DNA of 64,000 nt from a virus. The notes below the pieces were generated by a model, which had not been told where the DNA came from, searched no databases, and saw nothing but the letters and a program-made list of their open reading frames with translations. The position numbers were made by a program, and so were the translations under genes. Below, one piece after another: positions 26,601 to 52,716 of this stretch; the stretch's first letter is position 1, and every line of letters starts with the position of its first letter. The stretch lies in IMG/VR virus record IMGVR_UViG_3300042898_000786, positions 1-64,000 of that record; one strand, 5' to 3'.

Positions 26601-29600
26601 ACAGAGGATTTGTGCAGAAAGTTAAAGACATCGTCAATGAGTTATTAGTTCGTGCCGGTATACGTGACATCAGCATATCAACGGATGACGATTTGTATAC
26701 TGTGGCTCGTGCGTTTAAGACCGCTATGGCCCTTGGCGTAGAGGTAAAGGTTCAGAAGGGCGGCTGGAAGAACTATACTCCAGTTGGGGAGGTATTCTCT
26801 GTGGGTATGTTAGATGGTCTTAAGGCTTCTAGTCTTACCGACAAACGTCTAAGAAGCATTATTACCGCTGGTAAGTTTGGTATGCTCACCGGGCAGAATC
26901 CCCGTGGTACCAAGTTTCCAGAGGAAGTTCGTGAGAAGTTTAACCGAGAAGCAGAAGCTTGGCTTAAATCTCGTGGGTACGAAGCCATTCCTATCCTTGG
27001 TAAGTTTGAAGGCATTGCAGAGAACAGTTTCCTAGTCCCTAACCTCACTTCTGACGATGCTCTTTTGTTTTCTCGTGAATTTAACCAAGAGGCTGTTGCA
27101 CATAACTCTGGATTCATTCACTTCGATGGTTCATTTGAGCCGCGTAGGCCAGACAACAACGTATTCGGGGTAAAGTACGAAGACAAAGACACCGACTACT
27201 TCTCAGCCTTGCGAACTAAGGATGGCAAACTAACAGCATTTAAGGTAGACTACAACTGGGATGTGCGTCTTAACTACCGCGCCTTAGAGGATGGCCTTAC
27301 TAACCAAATTGACTTCTCTATCTCTATCCCAGAAGGTCAGACATACGCTGAGTTCTTCGACTCTATCGGTGACCAGTCAATGCGAGCTCAGGCTACAATG
27401 CTTCAACTACTCGCTGAGAAGGTCGGATACAGCAAGCCTATTCTATTCTCTACAAAAGGGACTACTTCTTTTGACGCAACAAAGGATTACACCATCTTTA
27501 ACGTAGCGGAAGACCGTGAGCTTAACGAGTCTTTCGGTTACTTCGCTAACGCACTATCTACTATTATCTCTAAGGAGAATATGGGGCTTTACCGCTCGCT
27601 ACTTGATGAGACTAAGAAAAACTTCCCAGAGCTCGTAGAGTCTAAGAAGAAAGAAGTTAAAGAAAAGTTTAATAACTACGATTTTGCCCCCGACCCACAG
27701 GCTAGTGCCGAGGCAGCCAGCGGCGACAGTTTTGTCGAGCGTTTAGCCATCAAGGCTGCACTTGACGAGAAAATGGTTGAATTCTTTAAAACCAACGAAA
27801 CAGACTTCGAGGCTCTTCGCAAGAACTGGGAGACCAACAAGAAACTAATTGGTGAAGCCATCAACGTAGACATCACGGACATCGTCCCGAATATGAAGAT
27901 TGACGGCGTGATGGAAATACTTGCTAGTCCGACTCGCGATATCTATGCCGCAACTGAAGTTGCTACTCGGCTAAAAAGAACGGCTCTCGGCGGCGGCGAA
28001 TCCCTAACTGTAGATGAAGCTCGGTTGTCGATTCAGGAACTACAGAATGTTGCCGCAGTCGTTGGTCAGGATGCTGTTGTGGGACTCAATGGATTTGTAG
28101 CCAGCAAAGACTTGGTAGATGGCTTAGCTTTAATCTTAGTCGAGGTTGGTAAAACAAAAGACGGCACCTCTACTTTTAAGTTCAGTGAGAGCCCCGACTC
28201 TGCCACAAAGGGTGACGAGCTTCGTCAAAGACTAAGGAATATTGATTATGATGAGCTCTACGACTTGGCTCGTGGTTTCTGGATTGGCGCCTCGATGTCA
28301 AATCCAGAATTTGTCAGAGAATATCAGAACTCTAATTTTGACGCTGAAATAGAAAAATTAAAAAGCTTTCTTGAAGAAACAGTTAATAATCTTAAAGATG
28401 TTGCCGCGAATACCCTTAGGGGGTCCAATATAAGGAAAGCACTGGAGGTGATAGATGAATACAATAGTAGAATATTGACCGAAATAGAAAGTTCTCTCGG
28501 TAGGGCGTTTAACCCTTTTTCAAGCTATGAGATTCTATACAATTCATACAACGACATCGCCTATGACGCTAAAGATTTTTTTGAGGCGGAGTTTAACAGA
28601 CGTATAAACGACCCACGTCGTTTAATGAATATGTCAATCAGGGGCGCAATAATAGAGATTAGCGAACTAGATACGTTTACTATTGAAGATGCGAAGGCTT
28701 ACATAGCTTCAGAGCTATCAAATTCTGCGAATAATTTTGGTAAAATGAATACATCGGATGCAGTGTACGCAGATATTGATGGTTATTCAGTAGGCGGGGC
28801 AATGTATACCTTAAGTCCTGACGCAAATTATTACAGATTGCGGGATTTTATTGGAAACGATAATCTTAGCTCTGTTGTATCTGACTATGGTCCGTTTAGT
28901 TACCGCCTAGGTGACGTTATAGGAGAAGCTAATTCTGCTATATCCCGAAGAACCGCCGAAGCTTCAAAGACAACACGATACAAGTTACCAGAGGCGGATG
29001 ACTTCACCTCCGCTAGAATAGAAGTATTCATTCCTAAGCTTAACGATACATATGTGGTTACTGGTACTTACTATGATGGTGATGTTGGCGTAGCGTTTAG
29101 CTCTACAACTACAGGATATGACCTTAAAGACCCAGGGGCGGCTTTATCTGTTATGCCGGAAGTTATCAAGGCTATTAGCCGTATGTTCCCAGAGCGCGAC
29201 GTTAAATCGATTTCATTCAGCCCTATTGATGCCACCAGTAACAAACGTCAAGGTGGCGAGCTTCGTCGTGGTGTTTACCGTATGTTCGCTCAGCGCCTGT
29301 TCGGTAATTACTTCCCAGTAGGGTTAACATCAGATGATGAGAACGTCATTCCAATTCCTTACGCGTTCCGAAGCACTGAAAATACTAAGCCGGTGTACGA
29401 GGATATGGCGAACAAGCAAATCAACCGACCTAGGGACATTGACTTCGCTATCTCTAACTTTGAGAACATCCCACAAGAAGTTACTCAGGGTCTAAATGCC
29501 ATTAGCAATGCTGTTGCGTTCGCTTCACAATCATCATTCGCAAATAAGCTATTGTTCAAGGATGAGCTTCAGAATCGATTTAAGTCTTACGAGAAAGAGC

Positions 29601-32600
29601 TTAAGAAGAAGTACGGTATCAAATCGTTCAAAGTTGGGGGCAAAAAGAAGTTTGTTGATGCTGGCCTGAAGAACTACTTGGTTGACGCTTACGTATACGA
29701 GACACTCGTAGCGATACAGGCATACCCAGATGCTCTAGGATGGTACGACTACAAGACACGTGCTGCTATGGCAATTATGAGCTTGATTCACCCCGAGCTA
29801 AATACTGACCCAATGGCGGCTGTCGCATTTAAGATTGCTGTAGCTGTTACGTCGAACGGAAATAAGGTATTTGATAACTTCAAAGAAGCCGACCGTCAGT
29901 ACGAGTACTTTAAGAAGAATGGTAATTTCGATGGCGAAAAGAGCATTGGAACTCAGAGTGCTGGAATCAAGTCTACTCTTAAGCTTGTAAACAACGTACT
30001 TGACCGTATGACGATGGAGGAGTTTAACAGCTTCCTCACGTCTAAGTTTCGTGCTGGCGACTTGAAGTACGTCAGCAAAGGAAAGAGTAAAACATTACTT
30101 AGCGGATTTAACGTAAACACCGAGGTATACGGAGCCTCTATCTTCGGTCCTAAGATTGGGAACGGTTTCTTTATGAATCTTAACGGCCAGTTTGACCAGC
30201 TCACAATGGACCGATGGTTTATGCGTCAGTACGGTCGTCTTACCGGAACTCTTATTGAGCGTGATGCTAATAAGATTGCAAGCGGTAAAGTTCGTCTTAA
30301 GGGTGCGGTTACCGCTCTAAGTTCTAAAGAGAAGTCTATCCTTACTAAGGTTATACCGGGCTTCGCTAAAATGAGCGTAGACGAAAGAGCTACTGCGATT
30401 AATAAGGTTTCAATAGTAAAGGAGAAGCGTGATATGCTTTCATCAACCGATGCTTTGAATGAGCTTCGGAAGGCCGGAAACAACCTAGCTAAAAATCTGT
30501 CTGGTGAAGTCGAAGCACCGAATGGCGGAACTCAGCGTGACTTTATCATCGACGTCTTCAACGTGGCGCAGAAGGAGCTCAAGGAGAAGTACGGAATTGA
30601 TATCACGATTGCCGACCTGCAAGCTGTAAACTGGTATCCAGAGAAGGCTTTATATCAGACGTTCCAAGATGGGCGTGACGAAGAAGATGGCTCAGTGGAG
30701 ACTAGCGACAACGAACAGCCCGACTATGAAAGTGCTGCCGTTAAGTTGGCTCAAGAGCGTGGAGTAACTAATCAACAAATAGAAAATGCAAGAGCAAGAA
30801 CAAATAGTGGAGAACGTGCTGCTGAATCTAACGGACTCCGAGCTGAACTCATTGGCGGAGACAGTGTCAAAGCTAGTGCCGAAGAAATCCGTCGTAAAAT
30901 CCTCAGCGTCAAAGCTGGGCAACAAGAGCCTGTAGACTTATCTATAAGCGTTCAACCTCCTAAGTTCGAGATTGAAGGCAAGACGATTCGTGGCTTTGCT
31001 GAGCGTATGGCTGATTCTAATATTCAGTTGTACTCAGATATCATTGAGAACCCAGAGAACTATTACACACCACAGACTCTAGAAGAGATTCAGTCTCAGC
31101 TTGTGATTATGACTATTCCTGAGCTTCTAGATAAGATGACTACCGATAAGGTTACCGCCCTTAGTGGAAGCATAAAGGTTGATTTGGCTGACGAAGATAA
31201 CATATCAGTACTTTTAGGTGCTGAGCTTATTAAGAGGTATTCTGCTGAAGGAGATGACGTTAAGCTTCTGGAGATGATTGAGCGTATGTCTAAGATGGGA
31301 ACTACCGTCGGACGTATGTTACGTCACTTTGGAGAGATTAAAAATGCTACACATATTGGAATCGTACAGACTGTGGTGGCTATGGCTCAACGTGCAGGAA
31401 GGCGTCTTACCGACACTCAAATAACGAAGCTAAACACTTTAGCCCAAGAGTTATTTGCTTTGCAGGTAGAGGGTAAAGATATGATGTCAGAAGCCCTTAG
31501 GGCTCCGAGGCCTGCGCTTGACAAGGCAATCAAAGAGAAAGAGACGCAGTTGAAAATAGCTACAAAAAGGCTTGATGACTTTATCTCAACAGCAGTACCA
31601 AAGAGCGCTCAAGATATATTCGGAGGTCTAATCAAAGGAAACCTTCTTACTCCTGTTTCTCAAGTAGTTAACGTATTTGCCAACCTAGCTAATGTGTTTA
31701 CACGTCAGTTTTTAGTAAATCCTCCAGCTGTTCTTATTGATGCTGTCCGGGCTTTTGCATCCGGTAAGCCTCGAGAGATTACCCCTAGTGTAGCTGCATT
31801 TTTCTTTGGAGTAAAGCGTGCTGCCTTTGTGGGGATACCGGAAGCCGTAGAGTATATTTTTAAAGGAACACGCCCAACTGAGGAGACGTTCCAATATGAA
31901 TCTCGGCAAGGGTTTCTACCGATTCAAGCTATGATTGCGGCACTAAGCGACACTAAGGTTGCAGATGCTATCAATAAGGCTGCTGGTAAAGAGGTAATTA
32001 AATCAGACCAACTTGCCCGTCTTGAAGATGGTAGCATATCATTCTCCGATAGGTTAAAGAAGATTACTGAGGCTACATTCGGAATTGCTCCTGAAGTTAT
32101 GTTCCGACTACTTACTCTTGGTGACCGGCCATTCGCACGTTTCCAAGAAGGCATTGAGATATATCGTCGCGGTAAAAAGCTTGGCCTGCGTGGCGAAGCG
32201 CTTGACAACTTCATAAAGCATCCAGACCCTGCTACTATCAAAGCTGGTAGAGAGGCTGGTCGTGAGATTACTTATCAGGCTGACACATCATTCTCTACTA
32301 CTGTACAGAAAATACTAAATACAATAGGAAATACTAAGCTCGGTAATTTCTTGGTGACGATTATCGTACCGTACTCAAAGACTCCTTCTAACATTATCTA
32401 TGACACCCTTAACTACGTAGCTCCCCCGGTAGCTATTTTCCGGGCCGTGAAGGCCGCTAAGGACCGTCGCTTCGACCAGTTTGCCACGTTGCTAGGTAAG
32501 TCTTTTGTAGGTTTTACCCTATACGCTTTTGCTGATTTCTTAGTCAAGAACGGCTTAGCTACTGCTGGGGTTGGAGACGACGAGAAGAAAGAAAAGGAGA

Positions 32601-33583
32601 TGTTCTATAGCTTGTTCCCTTATAACAGTATCAACCTAAGTGGATTACGCAGGTATATTAACGGAGAGGGTACTGATTTACGTGATGACGACGTTTTCAT
32701 AGACTACTCTAAAGCTGGACCTATAGGTGCTATTATTGGAGCACGTGCAGCCTACTGGTCTAACAAGGATGCGAAGCCAGTAACTATTGCCAACGAGGCG
32801 GAGAACTACGGTGCTATCGCTACAATGTACTTAAGCGAGACGATAGGAACTACGATGTCTTCGTTTCAATTTATGGCTCAACAATCATTTTTGGCTAATA
32901 CAAATCAAATCCTAGAGCTGTTGACCACCAAGGGAGACATTGAGCCTGACTACATCCTTAATAGTTTGTTCAAGACAACCAGTGCTGCTATTCTTCCGAA
33001 TACCTTGACTGCTCTTAACAGGGCTACCCGCACGAAGCTTCCAGACTTGTACGACAAGAACAGCCTATATAATAGTTTGACAAACGTCATTAAAGACCGT
33101 ACATTCAATACTGATGGCATCCCGGCAAAGTTTAATATCTGGGGTGATGCTGTAGACCAAACGCCAGTAGGTGCAGACCCAGTATTCTATAACTTGTTTG
33201 ACCCGATTCGATATCAGAAGCGTCAGTACAGGCCCGAGCAACTTGAGGTGTTCCGTCTTTACGAAGACCTAGGGCAAGACACCAAGGTGATACCCACTAT
33301 ACCTCGTGAGCTTATGTCGCGCAAGTTCAAGGATACGGAGACTGAAATTGAGTATACGTTTACAAACGAAGAGGTCAACGCTATGATGGAAAAGCTCGGT
33401 AAAGAACGGTCAAAGGCTATGGCTGAGCTCATCAAAGAAGACTGGTATAAGAGCTACAATGACGAAGATAAGGCTTACGAATTGGAGTACCTTTACAAAG
33501 ATATTTCTAAGAACGGAGAATGGAAGCAAATGCTCTACAACTTTATGGAAACAGCAAAACAAGAAAACAGAATCAAAGAATGA
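23636..33583 (+). CDS. giant polyvalent ejection protein (3315 aa)
   Basis: HEAIH zincin motif (26300-26314), GMLTGQNP..ENSFLVP DUF3293-like domain, HhH-like GPKIG..TMDRW domain; TATATTTG box at 23612-23619. Confidence 0.7.
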   Translation: MMNEELDGLVSLGIERGRDFLYISNILKEEGYSEADIKSAEQFYNQKKKSQSDSTSASKPAMDSGASGLGGPRVGKSGLVSGFSEAFKEVQGQQVAVQQASVVANEREALGAIQFGLTGKAPLSYQQEKLLVADKEKISSEFEAQKSQSAKIFLANKEAGNDPYQDPEFQAAKQKENEFVERGANVNRQLHPELPEDAFVAYNDRGEARETPLSETKYLQSAIKVIPGLQQDIDFARIQERKQAEDAVEAEEFRKSYEFGNIPVISKAANLGIAVASGLTDMVANVAAFITEPFAGTTDEYEGIIPEVAQSIYESAKFTSSAMRQQRGVNLENYGLTASQQEKDPFSLWAEGDIEGGSKSLAVMVADAALFSRAIGALYGVGGTAARTQVGQAVLSTGKEGAQGVVNNLSRNVATNVADSPAMFGAMATLSAQQSWDAVKGRDDLTLSEKLFYQSVGIAANTLTEALNVDDLRLVTKGLPSAQREIALKSFRGTVKSYFDDVAKVGTPEAFEETLNFYADAFAKYVIDGELPTITDPLSSIAVGFLAPSLNVTATYAPAMIETALATTPWKMAKTKEFERNRKLADERGRIVEALANENLPQNEKKILQKALNNIETAIEDQERKDFEFYSGMQYADANEILNIHGQIGTKVQQYKKTRSKELRTVLEAEIRGLYGRKVEIENNYDSTQKSGISSSVFQGQATEQAKPEQGASQETIEASGVLQVSTEEGPEVTAEQETTRQEASKGASEEFAVGAVTPGKVITEGLARVMNNIFNATKAIVRGGKVQFHYSQESIADANEVTRSQKAKNPKIFFDGFYDRTNKVFHVYIPTAADSAKVVKQEDGKYALVDPKFAGQVIKTYDDRTTAFQAKQKYDENYIKFATSKARHEAIHPVIDALILEDKPILDESGNQVVNNAGEKQFIPNSFRQFLYDNIVSLYSSSPDAQRIFDNFLDPYIQSGATSATMQREAITEFLAAMADEKKFKQLDRGFVQKVKDIVNELLVRAGIRDISISTDDDLYTVARAFKTAMALGVEVKVQKGGWKNYTPVGEVFSVGMLDGLKASSLTDKRLRSIITAGKFGMLTGQNPRGTKFPEEVREKFNREAEAWLKSRGYEAIPILGKFEGIAENSFLVPNLTSDDALLFSREFNQEAVAHNSGFIHFDGSFEPRRPDNNVFGVKYEDKDTDYFSALRTKDGKLTAFKVDYNWDVRLNYRALEDGLTNQIDFSISIPEGQTYAEFFDSIGDQSMRAQATMLQLLAEKVGYSKPILFSTKGTTSFDATKDYTIFNVAEDRELNESFGYFANALSTIISKENMGLYRSLLDETKKNFPELVESKKKEVKEKFNNYDFAPDPQASAEAASGDSFVERLAIKAALDEKMVEFFKTNETDFEALRKNWETNKKLIGEAINVDITDIVPNMKIDGVMEILASPTRDIYAATEVATRLKRTALGGGESLTVDEARLSIQELQNVAAVVGQDAVVGLNGFVASKDLVDGLALILVEVGKTKDGTSTFKFSESPDSATKGDELRQRLRNIDYDELYDLARGFWIGASMSNPEFVREYQNSNFDAEIEKLKSFLEETVNNLKDVAANTLRGSNIRKALEVIDEYNSRILTEIESSLGRAFNPFSSYEILYNSYNDIAYDAKDFFEAEFNRRINDPRRLMNMSIRGAIIEISELDTFTIEDAKAYIASELSNSANNFGKMNTSDAVYADIDGYSVGGAMYTLSPDANYYRLRDFIGNDNLSSVVSDYGPFSYRLGDVIGEANSAISRRTAEASKTTRYKLPEADDFTSARIEVFIPKLNDTYVVTGTYYDGDVGVAFSSTTTGYDLKDPGAALSVMPEVIKAISRMFPERDVKSISFSPIDATSNKRQGGELRRGVYRMFAQRLFGNYFPVGLTSDDENVIPIPYAFRSTENTKPVYEDMANKQINRPRDIDFAISNFENIPQEVTQGLNAISNAVAFASQSSFANKLLFKDELQNRFKSYEKELKKKYGIKSFKVGGKKKFVDAGLKNYLVDAYVYETLVAIQAYPDALGWYDYKTRAAMAIMSLIHPELNTDPMAAVAFKIAVAVTSNGNKVFDNFKEADRQYEYFKKNGNFDGEKSIGTQSAGIKSTLKLVNNVLDRMTMEEFNSFLTSKFRAGDLKYVSKGKSKTLLSGFNVNTEVYGASIFGPKIGNGFFMNLNGQFDQLTMDRWFMRQYGRLTGTLIERDANKIASGKVRLKGAVTALSSKEKSILTKVIPGFAKMSVDERATAINKVSIVKEKRDMLSSTDALNELRKAGNNLAKNLSGEVEAPNGGTQRDFIIDVFNVAQKELKEKYGIDITIADLQAVNWYPEKALYQTFQDGRDEEDGSVETSDNEQPDYESAAVKLAQERGVTNQQIENARARTNSGERAAESNGLRAELIGGDSVKASAEEIRRKILSVKAGQQEPVDLSISVQPPKFEIEGKTIRGFAERMADSNIQLYSDIIENPENYYTPQTLEEIQSQLVIMTIPELLDKMTTDKVTALSGSIKVDLADEDNISVLLGAELIKRYSAEGDDVKLLEMIERMSKMGTTVGRMLRHFGEIKNATHIGIVQTVVAMAQRAGRRLTDTQITKLNTLAQELFALQVEGKDMMSEALRAPRPALDKAIKEKETQLKIATKRLDDFISTAVPKSAQDIFGGLIKGNLLTPVSQVVNVFANLANVFTRQFLVNPPAVLIDAVRAFASGKPREITPSVAAFFFGVKRAAFVGIPEAVEYIFKGTRPTEETFQYESRQGFLPIQAMIAALSDTKVADAINKAAGKEVIKSDQLARLEDGSISFSDRLKKITEATFGIAPEVMFRLLTLGDRPFARFQEGIEIYRRGKKLGLRGEALDNFIKHPDPATIKAGREAGREITYQADTSFSTTVQKILNTIGNTKLGNFLVTIIVPYSKTPSNIIYDTLNYVAPPVAIFRAVKAAKDRRFDQFATLLGKSFVGFTLYAFADFLVKNGLATAGVGDDEKKEKEMFYSLFPYNSINLSGLRRYINGEGTDLRDDDVFIDYSKAGPIGAIIGARAAYWSNKDAKPVTIANEAENYGAIATMYLSETIGTTMSSFQFMAQQSFLANTNQILELLTTKGDIEPDYILNSLFKTTSAAILPNTLTALNRATRTKLPDLYDKNSLYNSLTNVIKDRTFNTDGIPAKFNIWGDAVDQTPVGADPVFYNLFDPIRYQKRQYRPEQLEVFRLYEDLGQDTKVIPTIPRELMSRKFKDTETEIEYTFTNEEVNAMMEKLGKERSKAMAELIKEDWYKSYNDEDKAYELEYLYKDISKNGEWKQMLYNFMETAKQENRIKE
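25689..25835 (+). CDS. nested +1 frame small basic protein (48 aa)
   Basis: MIVRKNQGYQVLSSKGKPLSKPSLSKGQAKKRLKQVEFFKYLQKKAQK; AATAATT-ATG context; resembles small phage proteins ending KKRL.Q.E.FK. Confidence 0.55.
   Translation: MIVRKNQGYQVLSSKGKPLSKPSLSKGQAKKRLKQVEFFKYLQKKAQK
30786..30935 (+). CDS. possible nested +1 frame protein (49 aa)
   Basis: MQEQEQIVENVLLNLTDSELNSLAETVSKLVPKK...; preceded by ACAAATAGAAA. Confidence 0.35.
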   Translation: MQEQEQIVENVLLNLTDSELNSLAETVSKLVPKKSVVKSSASKLGNKSL

Positions 33584-34208: not shown

Positions 34209-34619
34209 CTACGGTAAGGTATGCAGTAAGGCTGTTGCCTTGACTAAGTAACCTATAGAGGTATCCTTATCGCCTCCCTTTACGTCTTTGCGGTGATGGT
34301 GTTCATCACATATTACTTTTAACCGAGCGGTGGCGATTATGATGCTATACATAACGTCTTCAGATGTATAGTGCCCTTGGGCTATTAGTTGTTTGTTAGC
34401 TTGTTTTGTAGCGGCTATCAGACACCAGAACTTTGCTTCTGTAGTAATAATCCCCGAAGGCTTACCTCTTGATTCGTATTCTATGTAGAAGTTGCCGGAC
34501 CAGTGTGTGCCGAAGTCAAACTTTACTTCGATTGTGTGGTCAGACAACATCTTGCCGAGGGCATTCTCTCCAACTTGACCAAGCTTTAGGTCGTACCGAA
34601 AATCGCTATTATAATCCAT
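34209..34619 (-). CDS. PD-(D/E)xK-like nuclease
   Basis: DLKLGQVGE...IEVKFD...GNFYIEYESRGKPSGI. Confidence 0.6.
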   Translation of the reverse strand: MDYNSDFRYDLKLGQVGENALGKMLSDHTIEVKFDFGTHWSGNFYIEYESRGKPSGIITTEAKFWCLIAATKQANKQLIAQGHYTSEDVMYSIIIATARLKVICDEHHHRKDVKGGDKDTSIGYLVKATALLHTLP

Positions 34620-35407
34620 TACAGCTTATCTACAATCATATATGAGTCTAGGTCCTTGCCCTCAATAAAGAATGTCTTAAAACGCTCTATAGCCAGCTCT
34701 ACCTTCTGCTCTCCATCAAATAGGAACTGCTCTGACACGGTAAATAATCCTATGTCTAAACTCTTCTTATCTATAGCTATAAAGTAGAAGTCTTTTACTC
34801 CAAATATCTGCGTATAGATATAGGCTTGCATATCATACCCGTACTTACGTGCGGAGAATCGAAAGTTAGAACTAAGGTCTGTTGTCGTCTTGATGTCAGC
34901 GATAAAACCTTCCTCTAGATTAAGGATGTCAGCCTTAGCCCTAAACGGAATACCAGATAGCATACCCACTCCCGGCTTCTCGAACATCGCCCCCTCTAGG
35001 TATTTACTTACTATTTCATTGCGATTAAACGCACCTACAATTCTCATAGCTGAGTCGTACTCTGCTGAGGTAACAACGTCCTTCTTAGACGCCTCCTTAA
35101 GCTCTTTAAAAGCCTTTGTAGTCTTTCCCTTGGTACTGGATATATCGAACCTATTTTCGAGCTCGTGAGGCTCTAAAATCATCGTATGAATAAGCTTACC
35201 CATAAGGAGAGCTGGAGAATCCTCCTTCTGTCCATACTTAGTTACGTAGTAGTAAGTCTTAGGGGATTCTAAGAGCATCTTACACGCAGAGGATGATAGA
35301 GCGTGCTTGCCGAGATGGCCATAGTAGAAGTCGTCATCTACCATTAGACTCAAAAGGTCTGGAGCGTTATACTCCTCGCCGTTGAGTAGTGTTATAATAT
35401 CTTTCAT
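34619..35407 (-). CDS. PD-(D/E)xK exonuclease (RecE/ExoVIII-like)
   Basis: LSSS..K, GKLIHTMILEP, KADIL, DIKTT, YDMQAYIY. Confidence 0.8.
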   Translation of the reverse strand: MKDIITLLNGEEYNAPDLLSLMVDDDFYYGHLGKHALSSSACKMLLESPKTYYYVTKYGQKEDSPALLMGKLIHTMILEPHELENRFDISSTKGKTTKAFKELKEASKKDVVTSAEYDSAMRIVGAFNRNEIVSKYLEGAMFEKPGVGMLSGIPFRAKADILNLEEGFIADIKTTTDLSSNFRFSARKYGYDMQAYIYTQIFGVKDFYFIAIDKKSLDIGLFTVSEQFLFDGEQKVELAIERFKTFFIEGKDLDSYMIVDKL

Positions 35408-44137: not shown

Positions 44138-44437
44138 TTACGAAGGTTCGTTCCAATCACTATACTTAAGCCCCCACTGTAGGTTAATCCACTGCATTTC
44201 TTTCTCGGCTAAGGTTTTGTTTAGCTTGAGATTCTTACGCAGGTAGTCCGTGCCCCAGGCCTTCCACTGGTCACCCTGATTCACAGTCATAGTCCACTCG
44301 GTCCACCAGTTGTCGGTTCTACCCTTGATGTCTTCGTAGGTAACATTATGTCCGGCAATAACAAACATCTGATTAAGTAAATCAATCACCGCTTGCTCAC
44401 GCTTTTGGTCTCGGGTTAGTCTTTTTTTAGTTTCCAT
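44138..44437 (-). CDS. hypothetical protein
   Basis: Trp-rich small ORF. Confidence 0.6.
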   Translation of the reverse strand: METKKRLTRDQKREQAVIDLLNQMFVIAGHNVTYEDIKGRTDNWWTEWTMTVNQGDQWKAWGTDYLRKNLKLNKTLAEKEMQWINLQWGLKYSDWNEPS

Positions 44438-44769
44438 AGTTCGTATGTGCTGTTTAACGTGTTGAATTTAATATAATCCTCTCGCTCCTCCAAAATTTCT
44501 GTAACAGGGCTAGTTTGCCAAGTAAAAAACTGGTTAAATGGAGACATAATTAGTGAATAACCAATTGCTGGTTTATCGTGACGGGCTTTAAACTTATTTT
44601 CTCCATTCCATTCAACCCACATCACTTCCTTAGATTGGTTGGTTAGTCCGTCTCGTTCACGAACTAATTTCCAATTGAATTCGTTTTCAATTACATTTTG
44701 TTCAAGAGCAACTTTCAAGACATTATCTTCTAATGTCATTGGAATTTTAGTTTGTTTTAACTTGCTCAT
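44416..44769 (-). CDS. hypothetical protein
   Basis: Starts in junction repeat ATG; WQTSPVTEI...FNTLNS.YEL. Confidence 0.65.
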   Translation of the reverse strand: MSKLKQTKIPMTLEDNVLKVALEQNVIENEFNWKLVRERDGLTNQSKEVMWVEWNGENKFKARHDKPAIGYSLIMSPFNQFFTWQTSPVTEILEEREDYIKFNTLNSTYELWKLKKD

Positions 44770-44781
44770 TTCTCGTTGGTG

Positions 44782-44934
44782 TTAAGGGTTAAGCAATAGC
44801 CAAACGCCAAACCACAGGTGCAATATAATTGACCCAATAGCGCCAAACATTTTTGGTAACTCTTTTTGTTTTGACGCTGTTACGCCTGCGCCTACTGCTC
44901 CGAGAAGGAGGTAGATTGCGATAATTGTTTTCAT
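44782..44934 (-). CDS. small two-TM membrane protein
   Basis: MKTIIAIYLLLGAVGAG...LWFGVWLLLNP; bounded by junction repeats. Confidence 0.55.
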   Translation of the reverse strand: MKTIIAIYLLLGAVGAGVTASKQKELPKMFGAIGSIILHLWFGVWLLLNP

Positions 44935-45182
44935 TTCTCTTTGGTTTTAAATCGTAAACTGTAGTATTCTTCTGCGATGCCGCTATTAGGGTCGAGGTGC
45001 TGCATTTCCATACCTGTGTGGAATGACTCTATGATTTCAGCCATCTCTTTCTCAAGCATTGATTCTGCCTCATCAATTACATTAGACAATGCTTTTTGAT
45101 AACCAGTCTGCCACTCATTTGATGCGGTCATTTGTTCTGCCTTAAGACTTTGAATAAGTTCTTGCATTGGTGTCTTCTTCAT
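44931..45182 (-). CDS. hypothetical protein
   Basis: MKKTPMQELI...FKTKEK. Confidence 0.6.
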   Translation of the reverse strand: MKKTPMQELIQSLKAEQMTASNEWQTGYQKALSNVIDEAESMLEKEMAEIIESFHTGMEMQHLDPNSGIAEEYYSLRFKTKEK

Positions 45183-45216
45183 AAGCAAATTTATTTGCGG
45201 TGAGGAGCCTTGCGAC

Positions 45217-45357
45217 TCATTTCTCGTTGGTTTTAAGCATTTCGTTTAGTTCAAGCATCAACTCAAATGTGTCAATGAGTTCATCAGTTGGTTCATCCTC
45301 CCGATGTATTAAACTTTGAGGCATTCCTATTTCTATAATTTCAAGTATCCTTTTCAT
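45217..45357 (-). CDS. small acidic protein
   Basis: MKRILEII...LKTNEK; bounded by repeats. Confidence 0.5.
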   Translation of the reverse strand: MKRILEIIEIGMPQSLIHREDEPTDELIDTFELMLELNEMLKTNEK

Positions 45358-45369
45358 TTATCGTTGGTG

Positions 45370-45588
45370 TTAAAGGTTTTCAATTTCAAAATATTCATAA
45401 TATTCCTTAACCTCTTTTTTGGTTAATGCCTTTACCCAATCTTTACTTGCGTACAACGGCATTGATTTTCTCCCGTGAGGTTCTACTACAATTTCATCTA
45501 TGTCGCATTGTGATTGCAATTCTACATCAGATATTGATGCAAGAACCCATACCAATGTTTGATTTTTAATTTCGTCAGTTATTTTCAT
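45370..45588 (-). CDS. hypothetical protein
   Basis: Bounded by repeats. Confidence 0.55.
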   Translation of the reverse strand: MKITDEIKNQTLVWVLASISDVELQSQCDIDEIVVEPHGRKSMPLYASKDWVKALTKKEVKEYYEYFEIENL

Positions 45589-45776
45589 TTCTCGTTGGTT
45601 TTGTATTCTTTATCAAAAGAATCTGCAATCTCACGGGTGGTCAAATCTCCGTACTTGAAAGCGAAGTCAATCATCTGCTCCTTCTCAATTCTTTTTGCTT
45701 CTCTAATATCAAGTGGTGTGATTGTACCTTGCATCTCCCACATATTAACAAGCCACTCTACTGCTGTTTTTTTCAT
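45585..45776 (-). CDS. hypothetical protein (KTAVEWL family)
   Basis: MKKTAVEWL...AKRIEKEQMID...YKTNEK. Confidence 0.65.
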   Translation of the reverse strand: MKKTAVEWLVNMWEMQGTITPLDIREAKRIEKEQMIDFAFKYGDLTTREIADSFDKEYKTNEK

Positions 45777-45834
45777 CTCTCTAAAATTTAATTGGTTTTG
45801 TTTGCCCTCATTTAACCGCATCAGGCTTCTCGGT

Positions 45835-45996
45835 TTATTTCTCTTTGGTGTTAGTCTTCCACTGGTATTCGCACTTGCCGTCCTTAATAGGTGAGTTCAT
45901 AAAGTAGGATTGATACATATCTTCGGAGGCAGTGAATCGGTAGCAGGTCATCTTGAGGTCGCAATTTGCGCCACTACATTTAGTTATGTCGGTCAT
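45835..45996 (-). CDS. small Cys-rich protein
   Basis: MTDITKCSGANCDLKMTCYRF...CEYQWKTNTKEK. Confidence 0.65.
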   Translation of the reverse strand: MTDITKCSGANCDLKMTCYRFTASEDMYQSYFMNSPIKDGKCEYQWKTNTKEK

Positions 45997-46019
45997 TTTT
46001 ATTTAATTTAAAAGAAAAA

Positions 46020-46086
46020 GACTCCGTTAATCAGGGCGGTAGCTTGCCGCTTACTGAATCCTAATGCGCCATAAGCGGGCGGAGTT
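46020..46086 (-). ncRNA. structured RNA element or terminator
   Basis: ACUCCG/CGGAGU closing stem, internal hairpins, followed by U tract. Confidence 0.4.
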
Positions 46087-46087
46087 C

Positions 46088-46216
46088 TCATTTCTCTTTG
46101 GTGTTAAATTCATTTTCAGTATAGAAGTCCGTGCCTTCGTTGTCTTCTGGTTCGATGCCATTCTTAATCATATCAACGATTAACAACAGCTCGGTCATTG
46201 TCAGTTCTATTTTCAT
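46088..46216 (-). CDS. small acidic protein
   Basis: MKIELTM...EFNTKEK. Confidence 0.5.
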   Translation of the reverse strand: MKIELTMTELLLIVDMIKNGIEPEDNEGTDFYTENEFNTKEK

Positions 46217-46515
46217 TCTTCTTCGTCGTTATATTCTGGGTAGTGTTCACCGGTGTTGCCATTCTGCATAATCACAATCATACGTTCGTCAAGTCTCTCC
46301 TGCTCTAGCAGGTCTTCTTGCTTTACCCTAGCGATGCAGCAGGGCTTACGGAGTTCATTATAAGCAATCTCGGTTTTCCAAGGTGGGCAGTTGCATTGGT
46401 TGTCGACGCTATCTTGGCTATCACCTGGGTCATCCCAGAAAACAAACTTCATATCTGAGCCGGGGCCTTTATTAGTCATAATCGATTCTATTTTTATAAA
46501 TGATGTCTTCAACAA
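46213..46515 (-). CDS. hypothetical protein
   Basis: ERM.VIMQNGNTGEHY motif. Confidence 0.55.
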   Translation of the reverse strand: MLKTSFIKIESIMTNKGPGSDMKFVFWDDPGDSQDSVDNQCNCPPWKTEIAYNELRKPCCIARVKQEDLLEQERLDERMIVIMQNGNTGEHYPEYNDEEE

Positions 46516-47069: not shown

Positions 47070-47363
47070 TTAATTAAAAAGAAAATTTTTGTACGATACG
47101 TAAGTATCTCGGTACACATTGTCAGACTCGATGAGTTGGTCGTGGCGGTCAAGGTAATAAATGATTAGCGGATGCTTTAGACCAGTAATCTCAGAAATTG
47201 TAGCGTTGGTAATACCTTGGTTACGAATTAAGAAGTTAACGAGCATAATGCGAGCCGTTACGACGCGCCTACGGGCGGACTTAGACATCGAGTCGACACC
47301 AAAGTATTTATTGCTTCCAGAGATGAAGCCTTCAATTTGTTCTGGAATCGACTGAACTATCAT
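47070..47363 (-). CDS. second DnaA C-terminal-like HTH protein
   Basis: ARRRVVTARIML...ISEITGLKHPLIIYY. Confidence 0.55.
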   Translation of the reverse strand: MIVQSIPEQIEGFISGSNKYFGVDSMSKSARRRVVTARIMLVNFLIRNQGITNATISEITGLKHPLIIYYLDRHDQLIESDNVYRDTYVSYKNFLFN

Positions 47364-47899
47364 TTTACGAACTTCTCTAGAGCCAAGACTTGCTTCTCAG
47401 AGAATTTATCTCCGTACTTAGTGACGACTTGACTATAGGCTTCGCGCTTATTACTAGCAGCCTTGATGTAGTTGACAGACTTTTCGAACAGAGTCTCCTC
47501 CTTCTCGGGCTCAGATGCCTCTGTAACTTGCTGCGGGGCTTCTTGCTTAGCAATCGCTGTCTCTACCTCGTCGGCAGTAGCGATTGAAGTGTCGATGCCT
47601 ATACCTAGCATACCTAGGGCCCGCCCAACGGCAGAGGTTTCGCAGTTCTCGATATACGATGTTCTGTTGATGTTTGAAGATGACTTCTCCTCGTGAGCAA
47701 AGCCCGTACTGACTATCCTGCCAGCCTCATCACGTACCACGGCACGGATAATTACTGACTCGCTATCAACGGCGTATATCTCGGTCTCAAGACTCATACT
47801 CTTGAACTCGGGAAGAGCACGAAACGCTTTGACACGCTCGTTAACCTCAACGTATTGCTTGCCCTTGATGTTGGTTGTTTTGAATTTATGTTGTGACAT
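47360..47899 (-). CDS. Rad52/Sak-like single-strand annealing protein
   Basis: YVEVNERV, ENCETSAVGRALGMLGIG; minus-strand TATATTTG box at 47918-47925. Confidence 0.75.
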   Translation of the reverse strand: MSQHKFKTTNIKGKQYVEVNERVKAFRALPEFKSMSLETEIYAVDSESVIIRAVVRDEAGRIVSTGFAHEEKSSSNINRTSYIENCETSAVGRALGMLGIGIDTSIATADEVETAIAKQEAPQQVTEASEPEKEETLFEKSVNYIKAASNKREAYSQVVTKYGDKFSEKQVLALEKFVK

Positions 47900-47940
47900 A
47901 TTGATTTAATTTGAATACAAATATAAGAAAGGTTGAAGCA

Positions 47941-50840: not shown

Positions 50841-51324
50841 CTTCTGATTCTTTTATGGTGATAAACGCAGACTTGAGGTCTTCGCCTAGATTAATTATTT
50901 GACGTTCTATGATTGTGAAATCAATAAGTTTGTTTAGCGTTGAGTCATCATTCGCCTCCTTAAACTTTACTGCACTCCGCAAAAAGACAGCATAAGATGC
51001 TAGCAAAGAGCGCATACTTGTATCTTCGATGCTATCTGCAAATTTAGCAAGCATTTGAGGCTTTGAGTCTTTCTTCGGCTTTCTACCTCGGATATGCTTT
51101 AGGTCGTGGTCGGCCACATACCAACCGCATCCTTCTCTTATAGTAATACCCTCGTTGTTACCTTTGTGCCCATTCACATCCTCGTCAAACTCAATGAGAA
51201 ACGATGTCTCTGATTCGGCAAAGACTATCGTTGCTTGTTTGCCGATTGCCTCGGGCGCACTTGGTGCGCTTGTCGCACTTCTAGGATTATAGACCACGCG
51301 GTCTCCAGTTTTAAATGTTTTCAT
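50827..51324 (-). CDS. early protein with SH3/KOW-like N-terminus
   Basis: MKTFKTGDRV...IEFDE...GH..G..GWYV; leader ACAAATAGAAATT. Confidence 0.6.
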   Translation of the reverse strand: MKTFKTGDRVVYNPRSATSAPSAPEAIGKQATIVFAESETSFLIEFDEDVNGHKGNNEGITIREGCGWYVADHDLKHIRGRKPKKDSKPQMLAKFADSIEDTSMRSLLASYAVFLRSAVKFKEANDDSTLNKLIDFTIIERQIINLGEDLKSAFITIKESEDGNQ

Positions 51325-51337
51325 AATTTCTATTTGT

Positions 51338-51562
51338 TTATAATTGGTGTTCGGTAATGTATAGTCGGATGGTTTGGTAGTCATCTACCTCAACAAAGTA
51401 TTCGGACTCTTCATCGCAGTATACTTGTTTGATTTCGTGCCTTTCATTTATTGACTTCTTAGTTGAGTCAAAGAAGTACTGCGCTGCACTTTTTGCGCCA
51501 AAGGCTTCGTGGTCATTAAGGTCGAGGTCGGAATGAGTCTCGTGAAGGATGTAGAATTTCAT
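51338..51562 (-). CDS. early hypothetical protein
   Basis: ORF with A-rich leader. Confidence 0.6.
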   Translation of the reverse strand: MKFYILHETHSDLDLNDHEAFGAKSAAQYFFDSTKKSINERHEIKQVYCDEESEYFVEVDDYQTIRLYITEHQL

Positions 51563-51581
51563 AGTTGTTATTGTTTATTAG

Positions 51582-51998
51582 TTATTGAATCGTGAACCAA
51601 TCTTCGTCCATATTGAACTCATCGATTTGTGCTTGACTAACGAACGCTTCGCAGTACCACGAATCGCCTCCGTCACTATTGCTAGTTAGGTCTGCCGATA
51701 CGTTACTACCTAGCAAGGTTTCCCACTCACGGGTGAAGTCGTTAAGGTCTTCCTCAGTTCCGACAAAGTATGTCCACACTCGAAGTTCATTTGCTTCTTC
51801 GTGGCCTCCCTCCATCACTACTATATTGCCTAACTCTAGCACTTTCTTGAGTTCTTCCTCACTAGTAATTAGCGCCTCATTCAGTTCATCATTAAGTTCA
51901 AATAGTGGTACACTATTGGTTGCCCATAGAGCCAAGGCTAGGTCGGTTACGTTTACGAATGTGAATCCGTCTTCAGTTTTAATTATTCGATTTTCCAT
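51582..51998 (-). CDS. early acidic protein
   Basis: ORF with leader ACAAATAGAAACT. Confidence 0.65.
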   Translation of the reverse strand: MENRIIKTEDGFTFVNVTDLALALWATNSVPLFELNDELNEALITSEEELKKVLELGNIVVMEGGHEEANELRVWTYFVGTEEDLNDFTREWETLLGSNVSADLTSNSDGGDSWYCEAFVSQAQIDEFNMDEDWFTIQ

Positions 51999-52017
51999 AG
52001 TTTCTATTTGTTATTGA

Positions 52018-52227
52018 TTAAAGTTCTAAAACTGCTAGTGAAAGGTTGCCCTCTCGGTCAAACCATCCCTCCTTGATTAAGGCGGTGGCAGTTCGGCCAT
52101 AGTGGCCTTGAAGTTCCCAAGCCAAGCCACTACGGACTAGTTCGGCAAAGAGGCACACGACTTCTTGGTCGTTGAGTGCGCCTTGTTCGTATGCGATGAT
52201 GTTCGCGATTTGTGATGTGTTGTTCAT
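52018..52227 (-). CDS. conserved early phage protein
   Basis: IIAYEQG...LF.ELV.SGLAW.LQGHYGRTA. Confidence 0.75.
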   Translation of the reverse strand: MNNTSQIANIIAYEQGALNDQEVVCLFAELVRSGLAWELQGHYGRTATALIKEGWFDREGNLSLAVLEL

Positions 52228-52242
52228 ACTGATTATCTATTT

Positions 52243-52294
52243 GGTTAAGATGCCTCACGGCATTTCGGCTAATGTCAAGCCTCTTCAGTTAACC
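52243..52294 (-). ncRNA. type I hammerhead ribozyme (AUC site)
   Basis: GGUUAA CUGAAGA GGCU-UGACAUU-AGCC GAAA UGCC-GUGA-GGCA UC^ UUAACC. Confidence 0.9.
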
Positions 52295-52471
52295 TTTGTT
52301 TTGCTCCACAAACTTTTCTAAAATGTCGAGAAGTTCGTCACCACATTTGTCTAACCTATCTTGAAGTTCGGGCGAAAGGTCGCTTGACTCAAGGTTGAAT
52401 TCCTCGCACACTGAGTCGAACAGCAAATCAATTTGAGAGGTAAGGATTCCGTAGATATTTTCGTTTTTCAT
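52289..52471 (-). CDS. small acidic protein flanked by hammerheads
   Basis: 60 aa; stop TAA lies in stem I of the downstream ribozyme. Confidence 0.7.
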   Translation of the reverse strand: MKNENIYGILTSQIDLLFDSVCEEFNLESSDLSPELQDRLDKCGDELLDILEKFVEQNKG

Positions 52472-52486
52472 AATTTCTATTTGTTT

Positions 52487-52537
52487 GGTTAAGACCTACC
52501 GAAGTAGGTTTCGGGCATTAGCCCTCATCAGTTAACC
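52487..52537 (-). ncRNA. type I hammerhead ribozyme (GUC site)
   Basis: GGUUAA CUGAUGA GGGC-UAAU-GCCC GAAA CCUAC-UUCG-GUAGG UC^ UUAACC. Confidence 0.92.
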
Positions 52538-52716
52538 TGCCACTCAGTAAGCGTAGTCCAACCGAATGCCGTCACGATACCGCGCCTCTGAAGTTGTTCT
52601 AGAACTTTGTACTCTTTAGTGGTATCTGCACCCAAGACAGACTCTACGCTATAAAAGGGTATGTCGGTTGCGATGCCGTCAACATACTCGCGGAAAAAGA
52701 AATTGTAAGTGTTCAT
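52528..52716 (-). CDS. early hypothetical protein
   Basis: Stop TGA is the UGA of the ribozyme CUGA core. Confidence 0.6.
   Translation of the reverse strand: MNTYNFFFREYVDGIATDIPFYSVESVLGADTTKEYKVLEQLQRRGIVTAFGWTTLTEWQVN

Follow-up and report, generated by a model that had tools for sequence, protein, structure and literature searches.

A short stop/start repeat at the boundaries of micro-gene cassettes in a lake phage of Flavobacterium-type bacteria and in its relatives

Introduction

Unknown small genes, among them genes with likely functions in host takeover and anti-defence, have their main reservoir in the accessory regions of phages, and the rapid turnover of such genes is understood in only a few model phages. 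Two phage repeats and the integron are the closest described systems. Promoter-early stem-loops (PeSLs) were described in the T4-type phages RB49 and phi1 (PMC2839356; PMC4122927), and start-associated sequences (SAS) in cluster K mycobacteriophages, where a role in translation initiation has been proposed and is unproven (PMC3203893). Here we describe an array of micro-genes in a stretch of viral DNA of 64,000 nucleotides (nt), called the window below, which represents positions 1-64,000 of the IMG/VR record IMGVR_UViG_3300042898_000786 (75,828 bases, rated complete). The array lies on the minus strand from 46216 to 44416 and consists of eight small open reading frames (ORFs) 42-117 codons long and a single non-coding element (about 75 nt), with a 20-nt motif carrying stop and start codons at the boundaries. 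The record is that of an uncultured lake phage infecting Flavobacterium-type bacteria; in naming the habitat, sequencing runs that contain small parts of the sequence only were left out.

With PeSLs the array shares a repeated regulatory sequence placed between small ORFan genes in a hyperplastic region. With SAS it shares a short, asymmetric repeat in one orientation just before the starts of non-structural genes, which sometimes contains the upstream stop. With integrons it shares a one-directional array of small promoterless cassettes that have a repeated bounding site, belong to a common pool and vary among relatives. Our literature search found no paper on this motif, or on any stop/start junction repeat, in Bacteroidota phages. 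We think it probable that the motif is a common stop-and-restart joint for accessory micro-genes in a clade of Bacteroidota phages, and that it drives their shuffling.

Results

Seven copies of the motif in one array

A pattern search allowing up to three mismatches recovered seven copies of TTAAMACCAAMGAGAAATRA between 44766 and 46107, all on the minus strand, four of them exact and three with one or two mismatches. Shuffled sequences contained 0.06 copies on average and none reached seven. The original prediction, made from the letters of the window, had placed seven minus-strand copies at gene boundaries, and every one of them was found again; the scan was run on the complete 75,828-base record and gave no further copy outside these 1.3 kb, so that the repeat is confined to the array. 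The members of the array and the motif copies are listed below in the direction of reading. L008 stands for IMGVR_UViG_3300044984_001188, a near-identical relative, and other contigs are numbered in the same way.

46088-46216, minus strand: ORF1, 42 amino acids (aa), no family match; homologues with 85-90% aa identity occupy other array positions in other contigs
46088-46107, minus strand: motif copy 1, exact; ends ORF1 as FNTKEK-TGA; followed, from its ATG on, by the non-coding hairpin element
46011-46088, minus strand: element of about 75 nt, rich in GC and present in the ORF list as a 27-aa frame; closing stem ACTCCG...CGGAGT, then a T-run
45835-45996, minus strand: ORF3, 53 aa, Cys-rich, phrog_20586 (function unknown); two paralogues in L008
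45835-45854, minus strand: motif copy 2, one mismatch; ends in ATAA, without ATG; ends the Cys-rich ORF3 as TNTKEK-TAA
45585-45776, minus strand: ORF4, 63 aa, of the commonest cassette family, MKxTAVEWL...EKEQM..., with 40 members in 33 contigs of the listed set
45585-45604, minus strand: motif copy 3, two mismatches at the 5' end; ends ORF4 as YKTNEK-TGA; its ATG starts ORF5
45370-45588, minus strand: ORF5, 72 aa; common to L059, L089 and L134 at 85-90% nt identity
45354-45373, minus strand: motif copy 4, GAT for GAG; ORF5 stops at its TAA; the ATG, 12 nt downstream and in the same frame, starts ORF6
45217-45357, minus strand: ORF6, 46 aa; not in the near-identical L008; a lake-metagenome contig skips it, with the joint 45207>45354
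45217-45236, minus strand: motif copy 5, exact; ends ORF6 as LKTNEK-TGA; its ATG opens 9 codons only
44931-45182, minus strand: ORF7, 83 aa, starting at 45182
44931-44950, minus strand: motif copy 6, exact; ends ORF7 as FKTKEK-TGA; its ATG starts ORF8
44782-44934, minus strand: ORF8, 50 aa, hydrophobic, probably a membrane protein
44766-44785, minus strand: motif copy 7, exact; supplies the TAA stop of ORF8 and the starting ATG of the conserved 117-aa gene
44416-44769, minus strand: conserved gene, 117 aa, phrog_38150; downstream edge of the array, homology to L008 resuming at motif copy 7

The upstream gene meets the motif in one of two ways. In frame A it runs through the motif as (F/L/Y/T)(K/N)T(K/N)EK and its stop is the TGA of ATGA; in frame B it ends at the TAA of TTAAC, 12 nt ahead of an in-frame ATG. 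The protein ends that had been predicted were all observed: five ORFs end in FNTKEK, TNTKEK, YKTNEK, LKTNEK and FKTKEK, and 45370-45588 and 44782-44934 stop at the TAA of the repeat. It had also been proposed that the ATGA of six copies supplies the next start codon. Six copies do end in ATGA, and the seventh in ATAA, but credible genes, of 72, 46, 50 and 117 codons, begin at no more than four of these six ATGs. Of the other two, the one at 46091 heads a 27-codon frame that resembles a conserved non-coding hairpin with a T-run; the one at 45219 yields a frame of 9 codons, and the next gene starts 35 nt on, at 45182.

Spread and conservation of the motif

The 18-mer AAMACCAAMGAGAAATGA was present in at least 119 IMG/VR contigs, compared with 6 for the control, the pattern read backwards. 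The 119 listed contig stretches, L008 and the window make up a survey set of 121 sequences, to which the motif and cassette counts that follow refer; copies were counted when within two mismatches of a 15-nt core, which gave 279. Most of the motif-bearing contigs are related replication modules of Bacteroidota phages. In the 119 listed stretches the motif was strongly biased in orientation, with 258 copies on one strand and 3 on the other.

The upstream ORF was in frame A (..TFNTKEK) for 140 of the 279 copies, in frame B (internal TAA) for 65 and in neither for 74. A longer consensus, AAACCTTTAACACCAAAGAGAAATGAAA, was identical in all three classes; conservation therefore acts at the nucleotide level, and a conserved peptide tail cannot explain the motif. 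The conserved region extends about 8 nt further upstream than first described, to AAACCTTT. The constant partner of the motif is the ATG of the following small gene: in 245 of the 279 copies it heads an ORF of 25 codons or more, and the ATG plus the following A are 97-99% conserved. Besides this start codon the motif holds stops in two of the three frames. Motif-led genes have a median length of 66 aa, and 16 of 232 reach 120 aa or more. Among longer ones, motif-led ORFs of 160-195 aa in L126, L128, L133 and L043 resemble, by their first residues only, an HNH-type endonuclease, methyltransferases and a sigma-factor-like protein. No inverted repeat or hairpin was found in the motif; six copies with their flanks folded no better than shuffled sequences, and no fold was common to them.

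Motif copies were slightly more alike within a genome than between genomes (3.20 versus 3.76 differences; 0 of 300 label shuffles). The largest array seen (L117, 3035-6703) has 15 copies, of which 14 carry a private variant, GAGAGATGA, and L112 and L047 have the same variant. Such genome-specific variants suggest gene conversion or concerted evolution between copies, or a co-evolving reader.

In 596 gigabases of prokaryote genomes, the 18-mer occurred, among the matches listed, as single copies in unrelated taxa at about chance level. The exceptions were a Saprospiraceae and a Flavobacteriaceae contig, from metagenome-assembled genomes, with four and two copies, respectively; both look like binned phage DNA. 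A 34-nt copy searched with blastn against 50,697 phage records, to look for the motif in cultured phages, gave chance matches only, of at most 22 nt, and the whole array region had no match among phage records at the DNA level. Genes further upstream in the same operon (51287-52540, minus strand; starts at 52471, 52227 and 51998, for example) are preceded by a looser relative of this leader, CTTAACCAAAcAAATAGAAAttATG; the phage may prefer a leader of about 20 nt, of which the array motif would be one version.

Exchange of cassettes at the motif

L008 was compared with the window. Its flanks are 96-98% identical and its annealase (see below) is identical. Its array has 14 relaxed motif copies, lacks ORF6, contains extra cassettes absent from the window, and carries the common cassettes in another order. 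The blastn blocks between the two arrays end at motif edges: 46108/46088, 45836, 45585, 45354, 45236 and 44785/44766. More distant relatives also differ in cassette content: L009, whose annealase is 91% identical, has a single full motif copy and a much shorter array, and L010 (annealase 75% identical) has seven copies of a degenerate motif variant.

Over the 121 sequences the cassette proteins form 121 clusters; recurrent ones have changing neighbours in nearly every contig, and tandem paralogues are present. The count covered distinct block ends that fall between motif copies spaced by no more than 700 nt, the motif zone being defined as -15 to +20 of the core start. It held 292 of the 457 block ends, against 75.9 expected from an even distribution, an enrichment of about 3.8-fold among ends that are mutually non-independent. 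Because the conservation of the motif itself draws block ends to its outer edges, crossovers can be placed only as in or at the motif.

Transfer units also span motif to motif. The ORF5 unit common to L059, L089 and L134 begins no more than 7 nt from the start of motif copy 3 and finishes no more than 4 nt from the end of copy 4. Cassettes have 83-97% protein identity in contigs whose exonuclease or glycosyltransferase is only 28-54% identical to that of the window, which shows, at the level of sequence comparison, horizontal movement of cassettes between divergent phages that draw on a common pool. Contigs from other lake metagenomes skip and rejoin at 44784>46090, 45236>45850, 45207>45354 and 46217>45837, and many break at 44769, 45599, 45835, 46108 and 46217. 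Joints that go back (46217>45837 and 46215>43584) fit reordering and circles alike in these assembled contigs. One cassette family exists in a 70-aa and a 42-aa form; what sets them apart is a deletion bounded by a motif-like stretch within the gene, ..ETQNAKE.., and by the terminal ..ETFNTKEK. Contigs of one metatranscriptome cover parts of the array; DNA carry-over is possible, contigs show neither strand nor RNA ends, and they were not counted as evidence of expression.

The original prediction had taken the repeat as a micro-homology for cassette exchange. It is borne out by an order that varies among relatives, by homology that ends at motif edges and by cassettes more alike than core genes. 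Neither a fixed gene order nor breakpoints outside the repeat were observed, with one exception at the left edge of the array. These comparisons show that whole cassettes have been exchanged at the motif, within the lineage and between divergent phages, without an integrase; the evolutionary part of our interpretation is well supported.

A further kind of exchange was seen within a gene. In the ORF4 family, L008:11967-12167 and 45585-45776 are common in their 3' half only, from about the EKEQM codons on; a second copy of the family in this comparison is L008:13578-13769. This suggests a putative second, in-frame exchange point in the MKxTAVEWL...EKEQM... family.

Nature of the cassettes

The ratio of non-synonymous to synonymous substitution rates (dN/dS) of the cassettes was 0.03-0.55, which indicates that most of them are real genes under purifying selection. 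Pfam and PHROGs assigned no function to any cassette, the only matches being the two families of unknown function listed above. Searches with Rfam and for transfer RNA gave no match in the array. The element at 46011-46088 folds into a hairpin at -27 kcal/mol (z -2.4) and resembles a terminator. It is near-identical in five contigs (L032:7046-7167, L045:3807-3928, L066:1244-1365, L096:243-364 and L104:1767-1888), which diverge right past its T-run; in two of these another motif copy comes directly next. Because it is near-identical in five contigs and flanked by the motif in two, it appears to behave as a mobile non-coding cassette.

Translation and transcription signals

Bacteroidia ribosomes ignore Shine-Dalgarno sequences and rely on upstream adenines and low structure (PMC6847099). 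The starts of the 58 other genes of the phage showed enrichment of A at -3, -7, -11 and -13 only, and no Shine-Dalgarno sequence, a pattern that agrees with the published one of Flavobacterium johnsoniae (PMC6847099). The motif has A at -7, -11 and -13 and contains no GGAG or AGGAG. With its fixed internal ATG and its A-rich, unstructured sequence, in a phage whose host phylum makes no use of Shine-Dalgarno sequences, the motif has an anatomy that fits a signal for Shine-Dalgarno-independent initiation or coupling, which it may be.

Pairing with 16S ribosomal RNA (rRNA), in the manner of a termination upstream ribosome-binding site (TURBS) or a Shine-Dalgarno sequence, was considered and rejected: the best duplex with a Flavobacterium 16S rRNA, at -14.7 kcal/mol, was equalled by 51 of 300 shuffled motifs. 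The motif and the 3' tail of 16S rRNA have AACACC in common as identity, not as complementarity.

A scan for sigma-70-type promoters found 9 sites where 12.8 were expected, thus no excess, and the motif contains none of the Bacteroidota promoter boxes TTTG and TAnnTTTG (-33/-7). TAnnTTTG boxes, often with an upstream TTTG, were seen elsewhere in the phage 15-25 nt before starts: at about 47905-47930, ahead of the annealase ATG at 47899, and before the plus-strand structural genes at 616, 12168, 15658, 21466 and 23636; none lies within the array, which fits transcription of the array as part of a longer transcript.

Recombination enzymes and genome context

Two genes outside the array encode predicted recombination functions.

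47360-47899, minus strand: Rad52/Sak-like protein, 179 aa, 1.3 kb upstream of the array
34619-35407, minus strand: PDDEXK exonuclease, DUF3799, annotated in PHROG as 'exonuclease VIII'

A Rad52-like annealase at this distance had been named in the original prediction as a candidate recombinase. The 179-aa protein has no sequence-level match in Pfam or PDB, and the assignment holds at the level of the fold. The AlphaFold2 model (predicted local distance difference test, pLDDT, 73) agrees with a Rad52-like fold, which is defined by a beta-beta-beta-alpha core: Foldseek ranks 1-21 in PDB were RAD52, Mgm101 and Sak of phage 80alpha, with expectation values down to 1.5e-4, probabilities of 0.99-1.00 and template modelling (TM) scores of only 0.3-0.44. 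On this model the protein is a candidate recombinase. The annealase alone does not predict an array, because no junction repeat was found in L012, which has an annealase about 50% identical. A PDDEXK exonuclease is the usual partner of a phage annealase, and it was present in 52 of the 119 listed motif-bearing stretches.

Searches for tyrosine and serine recombinases (PF00589 and PF00239) gave no match in the complete 75.8-kb record; in control genomes PF00589 was detected in 14 of 14 and PF00239 in 12 of 14. The prediction of an array without an integrase therefore stands, with these positive controls.

The array is part of a leftward replication module, which also contains a ribonucleotide reductase, a glycosyltransferase, a primase-helicase, a DUF932 protein and the PDDEXK exonuclease. 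The primase-helicase has its best match in Maribacter phage Panino (34% identity), followed by Cellulophaga, Flavobacterium, Tenacibaculum and Nonlabens phages; since it is closest to proteins of these phages, the host is a member of the Bacteroidota. The structural block includes a giant ORF of 3315 aa (23636-33583) with neither a PHROG match nor a DFDxD polymerase motif, and on these grounds a crAss-type virion RNA polymerase was rejected for it. A search for T7-type RNA polymerase (PF00940), which had no positive control, gave no match.

Discussion

How the stop-and-restart joint would act can be set out for messenger RNA (mRNA) and for DNA. In the mRNA, the motif would terminate the upstream frame in two of the three frames, by the TAA or by the TGA of ATGA, and would next offer an unstructured, A-rich start region with a fixed ATG, so that every small gene of a one-directional transcript could be translated without a Shine-Dalgarno sequence. 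In the DNA, as the comparisons show, the same 20-28 nt at both ends of every cassette let recombination between motifs delete, duplicate, reorder and exchange whole genes, within a genome as well as between co-infecting phages, and leave both neighbours unbroken. The most likely agents would be the phage's own Rad52-like annealase and PDDEXK exonuclease, the alternative being template switching during replication. Rad52-like recombinases drive phage mosaicism using short, diverged homology, and the minimal pairing segment reported for Red-beta is 23-27 bp (PMC3945230). The extended consensus of about 24-28 nt is near this minimal segment, and exact runs between motif copies in other arrays reach 26-40 nt.

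Several observations weigh against this interpretation. On the translational side, the motif has G at -3, where A is favoured, and C at -12, and its conservation goes far beyond what a generic A-rich start region needs. Because almost only small accessory genes follow it, the motif is not a general requirement for translation, and for this phage its translational role is one that we infer from the sequence. On the side of recombination, exact identity between copies in the window is at most 18 nt (median 10), under the 23-27 bp of Red-beta; as these runs are short, exchange events in this genome would be rare, or would proceed via template switching. The left edge of the array (46223-46226) is a breakpoint without a full motif, with only a degenerate AAGAAGAATGA. 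The population comparison used assembled contigs, in which circles or split reads are not visible. Phage mosaic joints favour gene boundaries anyway, so that joints at the motif do not by themselves prove causation.

This last point leads to an alternative in which the motif is a passive passenger: illegitimate joints would occur anywhere, selection would retain those at gene boundaries, and the motif would be the inherited leader or tail of a few ancestral genes. That mosaic joints usually lie at gene boundaries is the established view (PMC2839356), the commonest family, with its 40 members, encodes ..YNETFNTKEK, so that some copies are possibly common by descent, and both the left-edge breakpoint and the short exact identity between window copies would be expected. 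We nevertheless regard it as unlikely, since the same 28-nt consensus stands beside 121 unrelated protein clusters and one non-coding cassette in three frame relations, transfer units span motif to motif, one deletion joins an internal motif-like stretch to a terminal motif, and array breakpoints are enriched about 3.8-fold in the motif zone. A marginally better chance, still small, is given to the motif as an mRNA operator through which a trans-acting phage repressor or endoribonuclease (compare RegA and RegB of T4) would switch the micro-genes together, recombination being a by-product. Conservation in excess of a generic A-rich start, overlapping the ATG, is what such an operator would show, and a co-evolving reader would be expected to produce the likeness of copies within genomes and the GAGAGATGA variant of L117. 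Yet gene conversion gives the same likeness, no candidate RNA-binding regulator or RNase was identified, and the motif is near-identical across phages with 30-50% core protein identity, which would require an equally conserved factor; none was seen. To the same small degree we consider a stronger form of our own proposal, in which the motif is a connector selected for exchangeability, a 'gene socket' whose sequence a specific factor of the phage, be it the annealase-exonuclease pair or another protein, would read. If true, accessory genes would be actively captured, expressed and traded by an integron analogue made from translation signals, not from an integrase.

It seems improbable that the motif is a promoter for a phage RNA polymerase or a modified host enzyme, which would give each micro-gene its own short-leader transcript. 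The length of 20-28 nt and the single orientation are like those of promoters of single-subunit polymerases, the motif is repeated ahead of many early-region genes, and the early promoters of the related Cellulophaga phage phi14:2 are undefined (10.1101/2020.03.07.982082). However, the 97-99% conservation of ATG plus A, and the half of upstream ORFs that end on the overlapping ATGA, are translational features; the -33/-7 boxes, visible upstream of other genes of the phage, are absent from the motif; the sigma-70-type scan gave no excess; and T7-type RNA polymerase was not found, in the search without positive control, nor does the 3315-aa protein have DFDxD. Least probable of all, in our view, and very much so, is true cassette capture by an unrecognised dedicated site-specific recombinase or nuclease with the motif as its target, that is, a functional analogue of the integron. 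One-directional arrays of promoterless cassettes, sharp motif-to-motif joints, a cassette pool common to divergent phages and the many adjoining genes without known function speak for it. Against this stand the failure to find a tyrosine or serine recombinase in the complete record, the lack of an inverted repeat or hairpin in the motif, the variation of copies by 1-3 nt with no invariant crossover core separable from the start-codon context, and some joints that lie in degenerate or partial copies.

Several uses follow from a stop-and-restart joint as compact as this one, a sequence-defined connector of 20-28 nt with stops in two frames, a start codon and an open leader. The motif is a search key for accessory micro-genes in metagenomes, where at least 119 contigs carry it, and a natural candidate for a portable translation-coupling element in Flavobacteria. 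The array is also a clean substrate for asking whether Rad52-like annealases drive short-homology gene exchange in nature.

Among known systems, the integron had been the model of the original prediction. The resemblance lies in the one-directional, variable, promoterless cassettes and ends there: the record has no intI (PF00589 and PF00239 without match), the motif is not an imperfect inverted repeat folding into a hairpin as attC is, and the site belongs to coding and translation signals. 'Integron-like' is thus retained as an analogy only. The SAS are nearer in position and orientation, as the strand bias (258 versus 3), the opening of an ORF in 245 of 279 copies and the location of the array in a replication module show; like them, the motif precedes unrelated gene families and is absent from host genomes. 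The SAS, however, are 13 bp long, lie 3-7 bp before the start with an AGGAG Shine-Dalgarno core, are scattered over half a genome instead of being packed in one array, and are not reported as shuffling breakpoints, whereas here the ATG is inside the motif, which has no significant complementarity to rRNA. In PeSL regions, as was found here too, the repeats bound the insertions, deletions and replacements by which close relatives differ; an expression signal of its own for each cassette keeps recombinants viable there and would do so here. PeSLs differ in being intergenic composites of about 100 bp, made of a sigma-70 promoter, a stem-loop terminator and a Shine-Dalgarno sequence, and excised mini-circles were demonstrated for them, while the present array is known from assembled contigs alone. 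The motif described here has 20-28 nt, is unstructured, has no promoter or Shine-Dalgarno element, and overlaps the coding end of the upstream gene, for which it provides the stop codon, as it provides the start codon of the next; the sole terminator-like hairpin (46011-46088) is itself a cassette and not part of the repeat, and the host phylum is the Bacteroidota. In conclusion, this is a case of repeat-mediated modular shuffling in which the connector consists of stop and start codons, in a host phylum that does not use Shine-Dalgarno sequences.

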